Shown here in pieces: positions 36,646-45,307 of a DNA stretch of 64,000 nucleotides. Made by a program: the position numbers and the translations under genes. Source of the DNA: Rhodothermales bacterium (GTDB lineage: Bacteria > Bacteroidota > Rhodothermia > Rhodothermales > VXPQ01); contig JAJDWX010000037.1 in NCBI GenBank assembly GCA_022825385.1, positions 3,748 through 67,747 on the forward strand, written 5' to 3'. The notes below the pieces were generated by a model. That model saw only the letters and a list, made by a program, of their open reading frames with translations. It was not told the DNA's origin and searched no databases. Numbering within the stretch: the first letter of the stretch is position 1; each line of letters starts with the position of its first letter.

Positions 36646-38139
36646 ATGAGCAAGAAAGGCTGGATATGGGGCGTTGCGCTGCTTCTGGCAGGCGCGCTTG
36701 TTGTTTTTACCCTTGGGCTGGACCGCGGCGACGCTCCGGGGTTCGTCCTCTTTCTGGGCAGGTTCCATCCCGTCGTCGTGCATTTCCCGATTGCGTTGTT
36801 GCTTCTGGGGGCTGCGGTCGAATTGCTTGGGTCGCGTTCCCGGAGTCTGGCGCGGGTGCGCCCGGTCGCGCCGTTTTTGCTTCTGCTGGGGGCCTTGTCC
36901 TCCCTCGCGGCGGTGGCGCTGGGGTATATGCTTTCGCTTGCCGGGGGGTATGCAGAGGGCTTGTTGACGCTGCATTTGCGGCTTGGCCTGGCGGTTACGG
37001 CGCTGGCTTTTGTGCTTGCGTTCTTTTCGGCCTGGTTGCCGGAGCCGGGCAAGGCATATCGGACGGCGTTGGCCGGGCTGGTCGCGCTGGTCGTGCTTGC
37101 GGGGCATTTCGGGGGCAGCCTGGCGCGCGGAAGCGGATATCTGACCTATTATTTGCCTGCGCCGGTCAAGTCGCTTTTAGGGGTTTCCGGCGGCGCGTCC
37201 GACGGGCTGATCGCCAATGTGGATTCGGCGTACGTGTATGCGGACCTGGTGCAGCCCGTGCTGGACAGGCGGTGCGTTTCGTGCCATGGTCCCGACAAGT
37301 CCAGCGGGGCCTTGCGGCTCGATACGCCCGAAGGCATCGAGGAAGGCGGGCGAGACGGGCCTGCTTTCGTCGCCGGTTATCCGGCCCAAAGCGAAATCTT
37401 GCGCCGCGTCACGCTCCCGCCCTACGACGAGGACGTCATGCCCCCCGACGGGGCCGCCCCGCTGGACGTGGGCGAAACCGAAGTCATCCGGTGGTGGATC
37501 GAAAACGGCGCTTCGTTCGCTATGCGCGTGGCGGAGATCGAGGAAACGCCCACGGCGGTCAGCACCTTTCTTGCCCGCGTGTCGCTGCCGCAAGCGGAGC
37601 GTCCTTCCGGCATTTTCGCGCTGGACGTGCCGCAGGCGGATACGAACGCGGTGGCGGCGTTGTCCGAGGCGGGCCTGACGGTTTCGCGCCTTTCGCCGGA
37701 CGCGCCGTTTTTGCATGTGGCCGCGGCCAGCGTGCGCGGGGATTTCGGGGACGCCGAACTGGCCGCCTTGCAGTCCGTCGCGCCGCAGATCGCAGGGCTG
37801 GATATAGGCCATACCCGGGTGACCGACGCCGGGGCCGCCGCGCTTGCAGGTTTCCCGCATCTCGTCCGCCTGCATCTCGAAGGCACGGGGGTGGGCGATG
37901 CGGCGCTCGAACAGCTCGCCGAACTGGACTATCTCGAATACCTGAACTTGTACGGTACGCAGGTGACCGACGCCGGGCTCGAACGCGTACGCGATTTGCC
38001 TGCGCTGCAAAGCATATATCTTTGGCGAAGTGGCGTGACGGAGGCGGGCGCCGAAGCCTTGCGCGCCGCCCGAAGCGATCTGGAGGTGAACATCGGCAGC
38101 GCCTTGCTTGCCGTACCCGATTCCACGGCGGCGGAATAA
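36646..38139 (+). CDS. membrane-anchored c-type cytochrome domain (PSCyt1-like) protein with leucine-rich repeats
   Basis: N-terminal TM region, haem motif CVSCHG followed by ALRLD, and C-terminal LRR-like repeats (LDIGHTRVTDAG, LNLYGTQVTDAG). Confidence 0.7.
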   Translation: MSKKGWIWGVALLLAGALVVFTLGLDRGDAPGFVLFLGRFHPVVVHFPIALLLLGAAVELLGSRSRSLARVRPVAPFLLLLGALSSLAAVALGYMLSLAGGYAEGLLTLHLRLGLAVTALAFVLAFFSAWLPEPGKAYRTALAGLVALVVLAGHFGGSLARGSGYLTYYLPAPVKSLLGVSGGASDGLIANVDSAYVYADLVQPVLDRRCVSCHGPDKSSGALRLDTPEGIEEGGRDGPAFVAGYPAQSEILRRVTLPPYDEDVMPPDGAAPLDVGETEVIRWWIENGASFAMRVAEIEETPTAVSTFLARVSLPQAERPSGIFALDVPQADTNAVAALSEAGLTVSRLSPDAPFLHVAAASVRGDFGDAELAALQSVAPQIAGLDIGHTRVTDAGAAALAGFPHLVRLHLEGTGVGDAALEQLAELDYLEYLNLYGTQVTDAGLERVRDLPALQSIYLWRSGVTEAGAEALRAARSDLEVNIGSALLAVPDSTAAE

Positions 38140-38340
38140 GCCGGCGCCGCAGAAAGGCGCCGAATCTGGCGTATTTCAACGAGGGGGCATGACGCGGGCG
38201 GGCGGGACGCGTCGAGGGAAGCGGTTTGGATCGGCGCATCTCATATTTGTTTTGCGCCGGTCGCTGGATTATCCTACCTTACCTTGCAACAGGGCCTTGC
38301 GGCCTGCTCCGGTTTCTCTCCCCAATTTTCTGGAAATGTC

Positions 38341-38772
38341 ATGACCCAAAGCCTGCGATTCGTTTCTTTCTGGAGCCTTGCGGCTTGCGTACTTGTTCTG
38401 AGCGGTTGCGCCGGTTCGGGCCGGACGGCCCACCCCCTGGTCGGCAGCTGGGACTACGCCGTCGAAGCGCCCGACGCCACGTACGAGGGCACGATTGCGT
38501 TTACGGACGGCGAAGAAGGGCTGGAGGGCTCGATTATCGGGGACGGTTTTTCGGAATCGCTTCCGCTGGGCGGCATTACGTTCGAGGAATCCATGCTTGA
38601 TTTCGAGTTCAATACGCCTGATTTCGGCAGAATGAAGGTGAACGTTCAGGTGGAGGGCGACGCTTTTTCCGGGAATCTGAACGTTGTGTCCTATGGCATG
38701 GAAGCGCCTATCACAGGCATGCGGGCCGCCTCGGAGGACGAGGAGGACGAAGAAGAGGAGGACGATAATTAA
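38341..38772 (+). CDS. hypothetical lipoprotein with acidic tail
   Basis: Start at MTQSLRF with lipobox LSGC. C-terminal SEDEEDEEEEDDN. Confidence 0.5.
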   Translation: MTQSLRFVSFWSLAACVLVLSGCAGSGRTAHPLVGSWDYAVEAPDATYEGTIAFTDGEEGLEGSIIGDGFSESLPLGGITFEESMLDFEFNTPDFGRMKVNVQVEGDAFSGNLNVVSYGMEAPITGMRAASEDEEDEEEEDDN

Positions 38773-38886
38773 CGTCCTTGCGCCCGGCGCCGCGGGTTTC
38801 TGCTTTGGCAAGGTTGCGTCGGGCGATGCGTTCGCATGTTATGTTCCGCCGCCGCAGCCGCGTCGGCGCGTGTATTGGGGTATGCC

Positions 38887-40122
38887 ATGGAACGCCTGAT
38901 TAGCCTGCTGGGCCTTTTCGTGTTTATGGGATTGGCCTGGCTTGTCGGCGAGCGCAACAAGTCGATAAACTGGCGCATTGTAGCAGGCGGCCTGTTCTTG
39001 CAATTCGCGCTGGCGCTTTTCATTTTCAAAACGCCGATAGGCGCCGCCGTATTCCAGGCGGCGGGCTATTTTTTCGAATCCCTGCTGGGTTTCGTCGACG
39101 CCGGGACCAGCCTTGTATTCGGCGAGGAATACGCGCACCACTTCTTTGCTTTCAAGGTGTTGCCGACCATCATTTTCTTTTCCTCGCTCATGTTCGTGCT
39201 GTATCACCTTGGCCTGTTTCAGAAAGTGATCGGGGCGTGCGCCTGGGCGATGCAGCGTACGTTGGGTACTTCGGGCGCGGAGACGGTGTCCGCGGCGGCG
39301 AATGTTTTCGTGGGGCAGACGGAGGCGCCGCTTATCGTCGGGCCGTACGTGGAAAGCATGACCAAAGCTGAATTGATGGCGCTCATGGTGGGCGGGTTCG
39401 CTACCATTGCCGGGGGCGTGCTCGCGGCCTACGTGAGCCTTGGGGTGGATGCGGTGCATTTGCTGGCTGCTTCGGTGATTTCGGCGCCGGCGGCCCTCTT
39501 GATTGCCCGGTTGATGATTCCCGAAACGGAACCGTCTCGCACGATGGGCAAGGTGTCCGTGCATGTCGAGAAAAAACACGCCAATGTGGTGCATGCGGCG
39601 TCCGAAGGCGCGCTCGAAGGGTTGAAACTGACCCTGAACGTGGCGGCCCTGCTCATTGCCGTGCTGGCGCTGGTGGCGATGGCCGATGCGATCCTGTCGG
39701 CTACGGGCGGATGGGTCGGCGGGCTTTTCGGGTACGACCACTGGGACTGGTCGCTGGCCAATATTTTCGGGTACGCTTTCGCCCCGATCGCCTGGTTGCT
39801 GGGGATTCCCTGGGCCGATGCGCTCTACGCCGGCGAATTGATGGGCCTCAAGATCGTATTCAACGAGTTTATTGCCTATACCCAAATGGTCGAATGGCTG
39901 CAACCGGATTCGGGCGTGGCGCTTAGCGAGCGCAGTACGCTTATTTTGACCTATGCCTTGTGCGGATTCGCAAATTTCGGGAGCGTAGGCATCCAGATCG
40001 GAGGGATTGGAGGCATTGCGCCGGGGCGCCGCGCAGAACTGGCGCGGCTTGGGATCAAAGCGATGCTCGGCGGCGCGCTCGCCACGATGATGACGGCGTG
40101 CGTGGCGGGCATCCTGCTTTGA
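38887..40122 (+). CDS. nupC: NupC/CNT family nucleoside transporter
   Basis: Start at MERLISLLG. CNT-like along its length (GQTEAPL, GFATIAG). Confidence 0.9.
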   Translation: MERLISLLGLFVFMGLAWLVGERNKSINWRIVAGGLFLQFALALFIFKTPIGAAVFQAAGYFFESLLGFVDAGTSLVFGEEYAHHFFAFKVLPTIIFFSSLMFVLYHLGLFQKVIGACAWAMQRTLGTSGAETVSAAANVFVGQTEAPLIVGPYVESMTKAELMALMVGGFATIAGGVLAAYVSLGVDAVHLLAASVISAPAALLIARLMIPETEPSRTMGKVSVHVEKKHANVVHAASEGALEGLKLTLNVAALLIAVLALVAMADAILSATGGWVGGLFGYDHWDWSLANIFGYAFAPIAWLLGIPWADALYAGELMGLKIVFNEFIAYTQMVEWLQPDSGVALSERSTLILTYALCGFANFGSVGIQIGGIGGIAPGRRAELARLGIKAMLGGALATMMTACVAGILL

Positions 40123-40195
40123 TCGCTTCCGGCAAGGCGCCGCGCGCGGGTTGCGGCGGGGCGTTTTGCGTCTTGCCGACGAGCGCTAGGGGCGG

Positions 40196-40597
40196 TTACC
40201 AGGCCCCGAGGATGCCGCCCATCACGACGAAGTTCACGGCATGGTATCCTGCATTGATGAAATACAGTTTCATGGATTTCTTCTCGAACAGGTACGAGGT
40301 GCCCATGGCGGCGCATACCCATCCGATTCCGGCAAGCGCGCCGGCGCCCATGCCCCAGTAGAACGTAGCGTCCGGCCCAAGGAACAGGTCCAGGTTGAAG
40401 GCGATGACGAGAGCCAGGAAGAAGGCGGTGCCGTATATAAGCCCCATATCGCCGCTTTGTATGTCTTCTTCGGTAAATTCGTTTTCTTCCATCCAGGCTT
40501 CGCCGAAAAGGATGGGCGAATACCAGAGCATGCCTACGGCGAAGCTGGACAAGGCCGCCACGAGGACGGACAGGTAGTTGATCGAAGAGAAATCCAT
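40196..40597 (-). CDS. DUF1761 membrane protein
   Basis: Start at MDFSSINYL. 133 aa with WYSPILFGEAW. Confidence 0.7.
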   Translation of the reverse strand: MDFSSINYLSVLVAALSSFAVGMLWYSPILFGEAWMEENEFTEEDIQSGDMGLIYGTAFFLALVIAFNLDLFLGPDATFYWGMGAGALAGIGWVCAAMGTSYLFEKKSMKLYFINAGYHAVNFVVMGGILGAW

Positions 40598-40726
40598 GAC
40601 GATACGCAAAGGTCGGGTGGATGAGGGCGGGTTTCGCGTCCGCAAGTTAACGCTTTCTTCATGATTATGGCAAATTTCTTGCGGACGGGCGATACGTTTC
40701 CGGGCGGCGCCCGCCGAGAACGGATG

Positions 40727-40860
40727 CGGCGATTTTATTTGACGCGAAACTGCAATCGGGCCTTTCGGGGACGAGGAAATTGTCTTTAAATATTTGATAT
40801 ATAAATATTTATAGGAAGTAATTTTTATTTGACGGTTATTTGATCGGATGGGGTGTTTTG
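40727..40860. repeat. 134-bp direct repeat, left copy (islet boundary)
   Basis: Matches 44989-45122: identical over the first 24 nt and the last ~41 nt, diverged in the middle. Contains repeated TTATTTGA(C/T) motifs. Confidence 0.9.
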
Positions 40861-40918
40861 TGGAAACAATCCGGCCTGGATTTATGTTATAGAACACAGA
40901 AACCGTGAAACTGTGGCT

Positions 40919-41194
40919 ATGAAAAAGAACATCACCGTATCCATAGACGAGCAGACCTACCGCTGCGCTCGCATCCGGGCGGCGGAACTGGACACATCGG
41001 TTTCCGCCCTGGTGCAGGGGTATTTGAGGAGTTTGGCGCCTGGCGGTACGGTGGATAACGGGCAGACTGTAGCATCGGGGTCCGAACGCCGCCGTCGGAT
41101 GTTGACGGAGGTCATTGAGGACATCCATGTCGCTTCGCCCGATTTCAAGGCCGCCGATAACCTGCCTCGCGAGGAGCTGCACGAGCGGGGGTAG
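40919..41194 (+). CDS. vapB: ribbon-helix-helix (CopG/VapB-like) antitoxin
   Basis: MKKNITVSIDEQTYRCARIRAAELDTSVSALVQGYL; lies upstream of a PIN gene. Confidence 0.7.
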   Translation: MKKNITVSIDEQTYRCARIRAAELDTSVSALVQGYLRSLAPGGTVDNGQTVASGSERRRRMLTEVIEDIHVASPDFKAADNLPREELHERG

Positions 41195-41256
41195 CGTTGG
41201 GGGGCGTGTGTAGTGATATTTGTTGAACGCCAGGATTGCGAATGCGAAGAGGTTTG

Positions 41257-41682
41257 ATGCGCTTTCTTGATACGAATATTCTGATCTATGCGGTCAGTCC
41301 GGCCCCTGACGAAGTCGAAAAGCAGCGTTTGGCTCAGCGGCTGTTGGAAATGGGCGATCTTGCCTTATCCGTCCAGGTACTCCAGGAGTTCTATCATCAG
41401 GTAACGCGTCCCGGCCGTCCTGGAGCGATTACCCAGGACCGTGCGCTACAATTTATCGAGCGTATCGGTCATTTCCCCGTGCAGCATATCACGCTTGACG
41501 TGTTCCGCGAAGCGGTGGCTATCAGCCGCCGTTTTCAACTGTCCTATTGGGACGCCGCGATCCTTGCGGCTGCGCGTATCCTGGGTTGCGATGCAGTGTA
41601 TACCGAAGACTTGAACGCGGGACAGGATTACGGGGGCGTTCGCGCGGTGAATCCGTTCGCGGATTCGGCGGGATTGCGGTAG
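41257..41682 (+). CDS. vapC: PIN-domain toxin VapC
   Basis: MRFLDTNILIYA, VLQEF, SYWDAAILAAA and YTED (PIN acidic residues). Alternative starts at 41236 and 41242. Confidence 0.85.
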   Translation: MRFLDTNILIYAVSPAPDEVEKQRLAQRLLEMGDLALSVQVLQEFYHQVTRPGRPGAITQDRALQFIERIGHFPVQHITLDVFREAVAISRRFQLSYWDAAILAAARILGCDAVYTEDLNAGQDYGGVRAVNPFADSAGLR

Positions 41683-41863
41683 AGGCGTGTGCGCATCGGC
41701 GCCTGTTTACGGATCCTTCCTGTCGGGTCTTTGCAGCATGTCGTCTTGAGAATCTGGAACTTCAGGCATATGGTGAGTTGGAATCGTATCCAGGCTTACA
41801 ATCGCGTTAATCGGGACCTCGGTTACCCGGCCATCGACATCAGAACCCCGGCGGAGATCGATC

Positions 41864-42052
41864 ATGTCCAGGGAGACGAAGAAAAAGAAGTTTGATTGCG
41901 TCCAATACACTCGCGAAGTGCGTACGCAGCTGCAGAAGGAAACTGCACATATGATCGCGGAGGAAAGGGTGGCGTTCTATCGGAACCAGACGTACGCGAA
42001 TCCTGTACTGGCCCGGTTGGCGGCGATGTCGCCGCAACGAAAGGAGCGGTAG
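41864..42052 (+). CDS. small protein, unrecognised family (KFDCV-x-[FY]-x-RE), paralogue 1
   Basis: 62 aa: KKKKFDCVQYTREVRTQLQKETAHMIAEERVAFY. It shares a collinear motif with three other ORFs in this window. Confidence 0.55.
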   Translation: MSRETKKKKFDCVQYTREVRTQLQKETAHMIAEERVAFYRNQTYANPVLARLAAMSPQRKER

Positions 42053-42125
42053 CTCAGCGTCGCCCCGATGCGGGAAGCGTCGGGATTGCATCTATTCACT
42101 TGCCCATTTCCGGAGGCCGTTCGTC

Positions 42126-42308
42126 ATGGCAGAGAAAGCCGAAAAGAAATTCGATTGCGTTCGGTTCATGCGCGAAGCGCGCAGGAGGATTTACGAGGAA
42201 ACAAAGCACATGAGCCACGAGGAATTGAGCGAGTATTACCGGGCGTTTCGCGAAAGCGATCCGCTGTGGAAGCGCTTGAAGGCCCGGGAGAAAGAGCAAG
42301 CGCGGTAG
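42126..42308 (+). CDS. small protein, same family, paralogue 2
   Basis: 60 aa: EKKFDCVRFMREARRRIYEETKHMSHEELSEYY. Confidence 0.55.
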   Translation: MAEKAEKKFDCVRFMREARRRIYEETKHMSHEELSEYYRAFRESDPLWKRLKAREKEQAR

Positions 42309-42334
42309 GTTTCGTTTTCTGGAGATATTCGGGT

Positions 42335-42526
42335 ATGGAAGCCGCAAGCAAATTCGACTGCGTTCAGTTCATGCGCGAGGCATGGGCCCGCATGGACGCG
42401 GAGACCGAAGGCGTGGCCGACGAGGGGCGGGCGTGGTACAAATCAAGAGAATACGCCGATTCCTGGTTGCCGAAAATGTCCGGGCGGATGCGGGGTCAGC
42501 GCGGTGCATTGAGCCAGAAACCATGA
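42335..42526 (+). CDS. small protein, same family, paralogue 3
   Basis: 63 aa starting at MEAASKFDCVQFMREAWARMDAETEGVADEGRAWY. Its stop overlaps the next ATG (ATGA). Confidence 0.55.
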   Translation: MEAASKFDCVQFMREAWARMDAETEGVADEGRAWYKSREYADSWLPKMSGRMRGQRGALSQKP

Positions 42527-42702
42527 GCGAAACGGCAATCATCTTCGAAGTCGCCGGGTCCCCGGATGGCGGATGCGAGGGGCAGGTGCTTGGCCGCGGC
42601 ATGTTTACGCAGGGCGACGATTGGGCTGACCTGAAGAAGATGGCGCGGGATTTACACGTTTTGCTATTTTTACCACTTTCAGTTTGTGCCAAGAAAAGAT
42701 GA
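42523..42702 (+). CDS. HicB-like antitoxin N-terminal domain, probably 3'-truncated
   Basis: MSETAIIFEVAGSPDGGCEGQVLGRGMFTQGDDWADLKKMARD resembles the HicB-like fold pattern (IFEV..PDGGY..ALG.GI.TQGD). The tail (LHVLLFLPLSVCAKKR) coincides with a drop in GC. Confidence 0.45.
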   Translation: MSETAIIFEVAGSPDGGCEGQVLGRGMFTQGDDWADLKKMARDLHVLLFLPLSVCAKKR

Positions 42703-42723
42703 GATTCTCACGAGCATAATCCA

Positions 42724-44958
42724 ATGAAAGACGCCCAGAAACCAGACCATGTCAGTTTGACGACGCTTATCGAACGCCTTCGCGAGGGCCGCTTCGTTAT
42801 CCCGGATTTCCAGCGCGATTTTGAGTGGAAGCCATGGGATATCCGTGATCTAGTCCGGTCGATTTTTCTCGACTACTACATCGGCAGTCTGCTCCTGTGG
42901 AAGGGCAAGTCAGAGAACTTTGCCGCGCTTTCCTGCGAGGCTATTTACGGCTACCCCGATCCCGACGACGGTGATCCCGTGCACATCGTTCTGGATGGTC
43001 AGCAGCGCCTGACTGCGATGCACTATGTTTTCCTTGCGCCGGACAAGCCGCTCCCTAATCGCTCGAACCGCTTCCTCTATTTCATTCATGTTGATCGCTT
43101 CATGGAGGAGGCTTATGACGAGGCATTCATGTATGATTGGACCCAGAGAGGCGTGAATCTTCTCGCGGATCCGAGTGCGCAGTTCGAGAATCACCTGTTC
43201 CCCGTCTCGGTCGTTGGACAAGGCGGCTGGGAACTTCCGAACTGGGTCCAAGGCTACGAGAAGTACTGGCGTGACAAGAAGAAGGCCGCTCAAGCGGACG
43301 GCGACGAAGGAGCGGCACAAGAGGCGGAACGGCGTAGAAGCGATGCCGACGCTTTCGGACAGCACCTCAAGACCATTACCGAGCAATACCAAATCTCCTA
43401 CATCGAGCTAGACCGCAACCTCTATATTGACAAGGTCTGTGATATTTTCACCCAGATAAACAGCCGTGGGATTCGCCTTGATGTCTTCGATCTCGTCAAC
43501 GCGATGCTGAAACCGAAGGGCCTTCAACTCAAGCATCTATGGCGCGAGGCTGCACCGCGCCTTGATTTCGTTGATACCGAGCGGATGAATGTCTACCTGC
43601 TTCAGGTGATGTCCATCCTGCGTCAGGCCTATTGCTCGCCCAAATATCTCTATTACCTGCTTCCCGGACAAGAGAAAAAAGTACGTGAGCCGGATGGCTC
43701 GTTGCGAAGAGAAATATTGGTTCCTGATGTTTCGGAATTTGAACGGCGTTGGAATGCGGCCGTTGAGGCGGTTGAAAGTGCGATCAAGTTGCTGCGTCAT
43801 CCGCAGGAGTTCGGCGCCATTTCGTCCCAATACCTCCCGTACGTTTCGATTCTTCCTGCGTTCGCGGCGCTTCAGACAGTCCTTGGTGAACTTCCTCCAC
43901 CCCGCCAACTCGATGCCCAGCGCAAGTTGCGTCATTGGTACTGGGCCAGCGTATTCACCAATCGCTACTCCGGTTCGGTAGAGTCTACCAGTGCCCGCGA
44001 CTACCTTGACGTAAAGGCTTGGTTCGACGATGATGCTGCGGTGCCGGGCCTGATTGCGGAATTCCGGGCGCGCTTCAAGAATTTGGACCTACGCCGGGAA
44101 ACCAAGCGCGGCACTTCTGTCTACAACGGTATCTTCAATCTACTCGTGCTGCACGGCGCACGTGACTGGATGACCGGCAATGTTTCCCAGTACGACGATC
44201 TTGATGATCACCACATTGTTCCTAAAAATTGGGGGAAGGAGAACGGCCTCCACGGGAACATTGATACGATCCTAAACCGTACTCCGCTCAGTGCTGACAC
44301 CAATCGCAACGTCATTCGCGAGCGCCTGCCGAATGAGTACCTGCCCGAGTTGATGTCGGCCAGTGGCGAATCCAGCGTTCGGGCCACCTTGGAATCACAT
44401 TTCATTTCTCCTGCGGCAATTGAGATATTGTTAGCCGACCCATTCACGAAGAATGACTTTGAGTCCTTTCTTGCGGAGCGGCAACGTACGCTCCAGAATG
44501 CAATTGAAGACTTGCTGGTAAAGGAACGGCTAGACCTCCCACCCCAATTGCGTGAACTGGATGCAAATATCGAGAAGGTCGAGCTTGTTTTGCGTTGCGC
44601 CATTGACGAGACACTGGACGGAGATCCCTCTCAGCTCCCGCACCATGTACGGCAAAAGATTGGGGAGCGATTGCAGATTGCTGCGAGGAAGAATGCCGCA
44701 CTCGACGGCGAGCACTACGAGTCGCTCGGGGGCAAACTTGAGTATGCCGACCTGCGTGAGTTGCAGGACACGATCACAAATAAGGGACTTTGGCATCGCT
44801 TTGAAGGGCGCTTCGCAAATAAAGAGGTGCTTGCAAGGCGATTCGGACAGCTCGCAGATATTCGGAACGGTATCCGCCACAGCCGCAGCGTGGACGAGAT
44901 CACGCGGAAGGAAGGCGAAGCGGCAATCCTGTGGTTTGAGCAGGTCACCGGAACATGA
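42724..44958 (+). CDS. DUF262-DUF1524 (GmrSD-like) nuclease fused to a C-terminal Swt1-like HEPN domain
   Basis: N-terminus has IPDFQRDFEWK and VLDGQQRLTA (DUF262). The middle has DDHHIVPKNWG ... ILNRTPLSADTNRN (DUF1524 His-Me finger). The C-terminus has LADIRNGIRHSRSV (Rx4H) followed by GEAAILWF. Confidence 0.85.
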   Translation: MKDAQKPDHVSLTTLIERLREGRFVIPDFQRDFEWKPWDIRDLVRSIFLDYYIGSLLLWKGKSENFAALSCEAIYGYPDPDDGDPVHIVLDGQQRLTAMHYVFLAPDKPLPNRSNRFLYFIHVDRFMEEAYDEAFMYDWTQRGVNLLADPSAQFENHLFPVSVVGQGGWELPNWVQGYEKYWRDKKKAAQADGDEGAAQEAERRRSDADAFGQHLKTITEQYQISYIELDRNLYIDKVCDIFTQINSRGIRLDVFDLVNAMLKPKGLQLKHLWREAAPRLDFVDTERMNVYLLQVMSILRQAYCSPKYLYYLLPGQEKKVREPDGSLRREILVPDVSEFERRWNAAVEAVESAIKLLRHPQEFGAISSQYLPYVSILPAFAALQTVLGELPPPRQLDAQRKLRHWYWASVFTNRYSGSVESTSARDYLDVKAWFDDDAAVPGLIAEFRARFKNLDLRRETKRGTSVYNGIFNLLVLHGARDWMTGNVSQYDDLDDHHIVPKNWGKENGLHGNIDTILNRTPLSADTNRNVIRERLPNEYLPELMSASGESSVRATLESHFISPAAIEILLADPFTKNDFESFLAERQRTLQNAIEDLLVKERLDLPPQLRELDANIEKVELVLRCAIDETLDGDPSQLPHHVRQKIGERLQIAARKNAALDGEHYESLGGKLEYADLRELQDTITNKGLWHRFEGRFANKEVLARRFGQLADIRNGIRHSRSVDEITRKEGEAAILWFEQVTGT

Positions 44959-44988: not shown

Positions 44989-45122
44989 CGGCGATTTTAT
45001 TTGACGCGAAACGGCCGTCGGGCCTTTCGGGGATGGGAAAATTATTCTTAAACATCTGATATATAAATACTTAAATGAAGAAATTTTTATTTGACGGTTA
45101 TTTGATCGGATGGGGTGTTTTG
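44989..45122. repeat. 134-bp direct repeat, right copy (islet boundary)
   Basis: See 40727-40860. Confidence 0.9.
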
Positions 45123-45307
45123 GGGTCATAGCAAGGGTGTTCGCAGCACATGGCTATCGCCAGTCCGGGCACGAAAGCCGCAACAAATCCGATTGCAATC
45201 GGTTCATGCTTGAGGCCCGGGGCCGTATCGATGCGGCGACTGCGGGCATGACCGACGAGGAGCGGTTGGCGTGGTACAGTTCCAGGAAATACACCGAAGT
45301 CCCGTGA
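45110..45307 (+). CDS. small protein, same KFDCV-like family, paralogue 4 (diverged)
   Basis: NKSDCNRFMLEARGRIDAATAGMTDEERLAWY is collinear with paralogues 1-3. The start is uncertain (ATG 45110 lies inside the repeat; GTG 45137 is an alternative). Its stop overlaps the GTG of the next gene. Confidence 0.45.
   Translation: MGCFGVIARVFAAHGYRQSGHESRNKSDCNRFMLEARGRIDAATAGMTDEERLAWYSSRKYTEVP

Follow-up and report, generated by a model that had tools for sequence, protein, structure and literature searches.

The islet and its four FAM genes

The window, by which we mean the whole 64,000-nt stretch analysed here (contig JAJDWX010000037.1 of a Rhodothermales bacterium), contains a 4.3-kb islet enclosed by two direct copies of an AT-rich 137-nt repeat, on the forward strand like all islet features placed below (left copy 40727-40863; right copy 44989-45125, which bounds the islet and is 88% identical to the left). 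The genome holds these two copies only, and in related strains two copies flank a gene for a DUF6364-like protein. A sigma-70 scan of the islet gave a site count not above that of shuffled sequence, with none within the AT-rich repeat, which leaves the idea of the repeat as a promoter cassette unsupported. Just inside the left boundary of the islet lies a gene for a DUF6364-like small protein (40919-41194; Pfam DUF6364 E=3.1e-5, below the curated cutoff; also called in locus L039), probably the VapB-type antitoxin of the VapC gene that adjoins it on the 3' side. The latter (41236-41682; Pfam PIN PF01850, E=5.4e-15) encodes an ordinary VapC PIN-domain toxin, outside the clade of PIN-domain nucleases that we label PINp and that has a second small protein as its downstream partner.

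That small protein belongs to a family of ~60 aa, labelled FAM, with four copies in the window. The first of them overlaps a C-terminal PINp remnant (41734-41868; profile positions 105-150 of 152, HMM E=3.5e-16) that BLASTP aligns with PINp from P0149 (E=6e-14) and with L024 (E=1e-11). The copies are c1 (41864-42052, 62 aa; family HMM E=4.5e-26), c2 (42126-42308, 60 aa; E=2.9e-31), c3 (42335-42526, 63 aa, starting at the ATG at 42335; E=9.2e-23) and c4 (45110-45307; E=1.2e-13, over profile positions 6-45 only). That four small ORFs here are related, the diverged fourth included, had been proposed in an earlier note on this DNA. It was borne out by BLASTP (c1/c2 E=6e-14 at 43% identity; c2/c3 E=2e-9; c3/c4 E=1e-12), by an alignment with eight columns invariant across c1-c4 (including K-x-D-C; K, D, C, E, T, E, Y) and by the family HMM, which on the 3.02-Mb genome matched the c1-c4 sites only, at E 2.7e-31 to 9.4e-13. 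The same note spoke of a tandem triplication. As a recent event this is ruled out, because the copies are 31-43% identical to one another and the nearest relatives of each lie in other genomes; they fall into three old subfamilies that are present in other phyla too.

Copies c1, c2 and c3 are full length, and each has a GGAG-type motif 10-13 nt 5' of its start (in c2, GGAGG 11 nt ahead); c3 is substituted at near-invariant positions (R to W, P to S). The fourth copy is degenerate. Its true family match is confined to 45176-45295, its motif reads SDCN as against FDCV elsewhere (F to S, V to N), the C-terminal third is missing, and its N-terminal 20 residues are a readout of the right repeat copy. 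Its end does overlap the start of an SRPBCC gene in a GTGA (GTG at 45304, TGA at 45305-45307), as had been noticed earlier; the coupling is nevertheless incidental. What remains of c4 is a truncated relic on the islet's margin, and in a related strain different sequence adjoins the SRPBCC gene up to 45295.

The ATGA overlap previously described between c3 and a HicB-like ORF is likewise present (42523-42526). The HicB-like gene itself (42523-42702) is frameshifted and truncated: its ORF matches positions 1-45 only of a 72-position HicB-like profile (E=2.7e-8), and the reading frame changes at a T-run near 42655 that is one T longer than P0029 implies. In the corrected frame, 42640-42726 would read ...HFQFVPRKDEILTSIIQ and run into the GmrSD gene, overlapping its start at 42724 in an ATGA, which would give an ATGA-coupled chain of three genes, c3, HicB-like and GmrSD. 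Intact HicB-like relatives are 70-75 aa long, in a family of at least 3931 clusters; Pfam and NCBIfam returned no match for the protein, even for intact relatives, and sources name its close relatives '(predicted) RNase H-like HicB family (nuclease)' or '2-oxoisovalerate dehydrogenase'. The next gene (42724-44958) encodes a 744-aa GmrSD-like type IV restriction/defence protein (Pfam GmrSD_N E=2.9e-30; PADLOC PDC-M55C, HEC-05), with the Pfam match limited to the N-terminal DUF262 (GmrSD_N) and the C-terminal ~90 residues matching PADLOC PDC-M34B. A similar GmrSD gene lies directly 3' of FAM in L009.

Contigs of related strains, 95% identical to the window in DNA, have the same chromosomal site, after genes for a nucleoside transporter and a DUF1761 protein. 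Their order is repeat, DUF6364-like gene, repeat, HsdM::PIN (an in-frame fusion of 817 aa), c1, c2, a c3/HicB-like deletion remnant, hsdS, DUF6978, DUF1828 and hsdR, a deletion having fused the third FAM copy to the HicB-like gene (P0029, P0034). Homology between the window and these relatives is limited to 37952-41204 and 41751-42423, and that to their HsdM::PIN begins at 41751-41754; the VapC gene fills the place that HsdM::PIN holds in the relatives. The window has lost its hsdM::PIN save for the last ~45 codons (41734-41868, overlapping the c1 start), which leaves c1, the cognate partner of the deleted PINp, an orphan. This copy is 97% identical to P0002, the gene after HsdM::PIN in L039 and L040.

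Compared with L039, c1 has 6 synonymous and 2 non-synonymous differences and c2 has 1 and 4, totals of 8 and 5 substitutions that are too few to settle selection; the c2 counts are no evidence of constraint on c2 in this lineage. Sponge metatranscriptome contigs from a related strain span the c1/c2 and c2/c3 junctions and hint weakly at co-transcription of c1-c3, DNA carry-over being possible. In an 867-nt sponge metagenome contig from a related strain (run X3), the VapC end (41674) is joined to 45295 with 22 other letters between, and c1-c4 and GmrSD are absent. The islet is thus polymorphic in the population, and the site a hypervariable defence islet of sponge-associated Rhodothermales.

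Sequence and predicted fold of FAM

The FAM core comprises a basic N-terminus, K-x-F-D-C-V, R-E-x-R-x-x-I-x-x-E-T-x-x-M-[S/T]-x-E-E and, often, D-P. In the wider family A, S or T can replace the Cys of the motif, and the Leptospira form is without the FDxV segment entirely. A word-indexed search yielded 42 FAM clusters and an exhaustive HMMER search 426 representative clusters at 50% identity (E<=1e-3); every member with an NCBI record is named 'hypothetical protein'. The window's copies had no match in Pfam or NCBIfam at E<=1 and none in PADLOC, and seven diverse relatives, Bacteroidota and Spirochaete variants among them, had no Pfam, NCBIfam or PADLOC match either, in keeping with the earlier failure to assign the family to HicA, RelE, BrnT or a known antitoxin group. 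Searched against PDB sequences, the FAM HMM found no match (best E 0.18), and across Pfam, NCBIfam and PDB sequences no ribbon-helix-helix (RHH), AbrB, PhD/YefM, HTH or other DNA-binding profile matched FAM. An annotation table in PMC12457778 lists the Leptospira form as an 'antitoxin component', ribbon-helix-helix, an entry that appears to be database annotation.

Structure prediction, suggested in the earlier note, gave a three-helix model for c2 (AlphaFold2, monomer, 30-sequence alignment; mean pLDDT 88.5), in which the first ten residues are coil and helices span residues 11-26, 31-44 and 46-59, with no strands. Foldseek returned 0 PDB matches for this model, and viral models only at E>4. 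The natural tandem FAM-FAM protein P0049 was likewise predicted with helices only and no paired strands, at a pLDDT of 59.7 and from a 2-sequence alignment. No FAM relatives were found in IMG/VR viral contigs and no PINp match in phage records, and a phage link for FAM or PINp was rejected.

Several FAM proteins are parts of larger chains. The family is fused to HsdM without PINp (P0085), to HsdS (P0098, P0057), to the HicB-like domain (P0053, P0128) and, in 17 of the 150 best representatives, to itself. The link to HicB-like proteins seen in the window is a real one: other phyla show it too, as do the fusions of FAM with the HicB-like domain. One further chain, P0175 (149 aa), joins FAM to the C-terminal ~80 residues of an enzyme resembling 5-aminolevulinate synthase, and is probably a FAM gene inserted in, or abutting, a truncated housekeeping gene.

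PINp, the upstream partner, and its two architectures

The partner came to light because fusion proteins among the FAM representatives pointed to a domain of ~150 aa: six representative clusters are single-chain PINp-FAM proteins in which FAM is C-terminal. This domain begins with (K/R)-I-Y-x-D-T-S-V-I-G-G and ends with S-W-N-F-(K/R)-H-x-V-N...G-Y-x-x-(L/I)-(E/D)-I-R-x-P. Stand-alone PINp proteins score 27-33 bits against Pfam PIN, where the cutoff is 23.6, and their acidic residues are conserved, D7, E46 and D107 without exception and D94 almost so. PINp is thus a credible candidate for a nuclease toxin.

HMMs for PINp, FAM and the HicB-like family were scanned against six-frame translations. 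When loci were chosen by FAM, in the survey of homologue neighbourhoods that the earlier note had recommended, PINp stood directly upstream in 30 of 34 species-level loci, with a gap of about -11 to +20 nt between the PINp end and the FAM start. FAM had been portrayed as the recurrent upstream, coupled partner of different genes; it is instead the downstream, overlapping partner of the PINp clade. A second survey, which chose loci by PINp independently of FAM, covered 401 genomes of the window's phylum and found PINp in 67 of them. A FAM match lay directly downstream on the same strand in 27 of the best 30 PINp loci, and a divergent FDAV form, below threshold, was seen by eye in one more (28/30). 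At L055 (G174:C11) an IS630-like transposase gene sits between the PINp 3' end and FAM, with PINp ending at profile position 138 and FAM intact 1.25 kb downstream; at L059 there is no recognisable FAM beside PINp. With both surveys pooled, FAM is downstream of PINp in 58 of 64 loci, and whichever of the two genes is taken as the starting point, the association is nearly obligatory. Decay is one-sided. Stops or frameshifts interrupt 5 of 30 PINp genes whose FAM is intact and the reverse occurs at 0 loci, the pattern expected if PINp is a toxin and FAM an antitoxin. In L011, L013 and the window, moreover, intact FAM genes have C-terminal PINp stubs in front of them. None of the 30 PINp-first loci has a HicB-like gene.

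Two architectures recur. In Bacteroidota, Spirochaetes and Aminicenantes the pair is a free-standing two-gene operon, PINp (~154 aa) followed by FAM (~50 aa) with stop and start overlapping, in unrelated neighbourhoods. On Leptospira plasmids it lies directly 3' of the rep (replication initiator) gene, and there NCBI labels PINp 'VapC family toxin' and FAM 'hypothetical'. In Gammaproteobacteria, Rhodothermales, Latescibacterota, Gemmatimonadota and one unclassified bacterium, PINp forms an in-frame C-terminal extension of HsdM, the methylase of type I restriction systems, and many carriers of this fusion are sponge MAGs. The fusion protein, ~820 aa, was found in 12 species loci and in the window's close relatives (examples are L039:3579-6032 and L001, L003, L004, L007-L009 and L011-L015), with a conserved linker, ...YFYKPxPMRTLxEIxADILxLE...GLLxD...REPxxY. 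On its 3' side come one to four FAM genes, then often a gene for a ~72-aa HicB-like protein (sometimes other small genes), then hsdS. FAM is found between hsdM and hsdS in at least 12 species loci, and directly upstream of a HicB-like gene in L008, L012, L014, L015 and the window.

Some hsdM-hsdS intervals also hold DUF433 genes (L007:4490-4992, L006:4213-4434, L010:5219-5560), and the one in L007 is followed by a small ORF whose sequence suggests a PIN-like partner. It seems that small toxin-antitoxin-like modules of several unrelated kinds gather in such intervals.

A putative toxin-first module and the competing explanations

PINp-FAM shares several traits with type II toxin-antitoxin systems. 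The two small genes are co-directional with stop and start overlapping or abutting, one partner has a known toxin fold with its catalytic residues intact (PIN), and the distribution is patchy and mobile, over several phyla and on Leptospira plasmids beside rep. VapBC is the nearest likeness, pairing as it does a PIN nuclease carrying four acidic residues with a small, translationally coupled partner in a patchy, horizontally mobile distribution that includes plasmid sites beside rep. The order, however, is reversed, with the toxin first where vapB is normally upstream of vapC; FAM matches none of the AbrB, RHH, PhD/YefM, HTH or other profiles that would make it a VapB; and PINp is often fused to HsdM while its FAM partners accumulate in arrays. 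HicAB does have the toxin-first order, and several lineages, like the window, have a HicB-like (COG1598-type) small protein 3' of FAM. In contrast to HicA (PF07927), FAM has no profile match and is predicted to be all-helical rather than of the mixed alpha/beta, dsRNA-binding-like fold, and the HicB-like protein is without a DNA-binding domain, absent from most PINp-FAM loci and frameshifted in the window.

CDI and Rhs loci carry stacks of small protective genes 3' of a full-length toxin gene, some with C-terminal toxin fragments. The FAM stacks with PINp stubs (L011, L013, window) resemble these arrays, although PINp modules are intracellular rather than secreted polymorphic toxins, and displacement would here have to be read from remnants alone. 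Defence genes embedded in restriction-modification (R-M) loci are established, with PrrC as the paradigm (bioRxiv 10.1101/2024.01.29.577857), and PIN toxins have been linked with type I R-M operons in a general way (PMC5499597). Like the anticodon nuclease PrrC in the EcoprrI locus, HsdM::PIN ties an RNase-type effector to type I R-M among hsd genes, but here a PIN domain sits covalently on HsdM and has a small partner; the likeness is one of analogy only.

We favour the reading, at a probability of about 0.6, in which a toxin-first VapC-like module has FAM as its antitoxin, orphaned in the window. PINp, the first gene, would be the toxin, and FAM, the second, whose start overlaps or abuts the PINp stop, would bind PINp and keep the nuclease silent. 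Where PINp is fused to HsdM, the FAM genes lie between hsdM::PIN and hsdS. Successive PINp-FAM cassettes may be displaced downstream by newer ones, leaving stacks of FAM genes, some with PINp C-terminal stubs ahead of them. In the window, c1 would then be the orphaned cognate partner, c2 and c3 older stacked partners and c4 the truncated relic. As orphan antitoxins these copies may be neutral leftovers, or may be kept against PINp toxins that arrive by gene transfer. We prefer this interpretation because of the tight coupling, the nuclease-like character of PINp, the plasmid site beside rep, the PINp-FAM fusions and the asymmetric decay. Further support comes from the 95%-identical relatives, which carry HsdM::PIN-c1-c2-hsdS at the same site, from the excess of synonymous differences in c1 relative to L039 (6 against 2), from the metatranscriptome contigs over the c1/c2 and c2/c3 boundaries and from the 'antitoxin component' label in the PMC12457778 table. 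Counted against it are the failure of FAM to match known antitoxin or DNA-binding domains or, in Foldseek, any relative, the fusions of FAM to HsdM without PINp, to HsdS and to the HicB-like domain, which would also fit an adaptor or regulator, the locus with PINp and no FAM (L059), and the c2 counts, with 4 non-synonymous differences to 1 synonymous. The earlier note had named an antitoxin as one possible role, next to those of toxin and adaptor, and it is the one that we favour; a toxin is very unlikely, given intact FAM genes without a HicB-like gene.

That FAM acts as the toxin in HicA's stead, with the downstream HicB-like protein as its antitoxin, is suggested by the FAM genes in the hicA position before a HicB-like gene (L008, L012, L014, L015 and the window) and by the FAM-HicB-like fusions. 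We nevertheless regard it as highly improbable: most FAM genes have no HicB-like neighbour, including all 30 PINp-first loci, FAM has no HicA match and a predicted all-helical fold, and multiple intact FAM genes occur beside a broken HicB-like gene or with none at all, which for a toxin would be lethal. The fusions to HsdM, HsdS, the HicB-like domain and FAM itself, the position between hsdM and hsdS and the ribbon-helix-helix annotation of the Leptospira form can alternatively be taken to mean that FAM is an adaptor docking PINp or the HicB-like protein onto type I R-M, or a small DNA-binding dimer that regulates the operon. Such a role seems unlikely to us. The two-gene PINp-FAM unit is widespread without R-M genes nearby, beside plasmid rep for example, neither ribbon-helix-helix nor other DNA-binding profiles match FAM, the low-confidence AlphaFold2 model of tandem FAM-FAM is without the paired strands of such a dimer, and several of the fusions may be mere lost stop codons between overlapping genes.

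The remaining alternative to the antitoxin concerns this genome's copies only, and is compatible with an antitoxin role at the level of the family. The window's four ORFs may be functionless, decaying remnants of a lost HsdM::PIN-FAM system that stay open by chance and by their shortness. The partner toxin has been deleted and the HicB-like gene frameshifted, c3 is changed at near-invariant positions, c4 is truncated with a broken motif, c2 has more non-synonymous than synonymous differences from L039 (4 against 1), and the whole c1-GmrSD segment is missing from a related strain. Yet c1-c3 are full length with GGAG-type ribosome-binding sites, the c1 differences lean the other way (6 synonymous, 2 non-synonymous) and metatranscriptome contigs run over c1-c3, and we consider decay of the window's copies a serious prospect at somewhat under even odds. 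A more elaborate proposal extends the antitoxin role to type I R-M and must be called speculative: the PIN domain on HsdM could be a latent RNase silenced by FAM, and a phage that disables or dismantles the restriction complex would release it for a PrrC-like back-up suicide. The FAM arrays and PIN stubs would then record repeated displacement of cassettes, as do the orphan immunity stacks of CDI and Rhs loci, and the arrays might be retained as an immunity library against incoming PINp variants in a crowded sponge microbiome.

A literature search of limited scope found no description of the FAM family, the HsdM::PIN fusion or the FAM arrays. A widespread small-protein family absent from curated libraries is hereby given a name and a context, and a toxin-first PIN module is defined whose partner is otherwise missed in annotation or left 'hypothetical'. 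Judged from sequence, FAM is a type II-like toxin-antitoxin partner set apart by its unusual gene order, its helical and unrecognised character, the fusion of its partner to HsdM and its stacking. Several phyla of sponge symbionts carry the PIN toxin domain covalently on HsdM, and there arrays of partner genes precede hsdS. Taken alone, the window offers modest biology, that of a decaying relic in a sponge-symbiont genome. If FAM is indeed an antitoxin, it would represent a new antitoxin fold family, and HsdM::PIN would make it practicable to study a toxin-antitoxin system and a restriction system that act together as a single unit.
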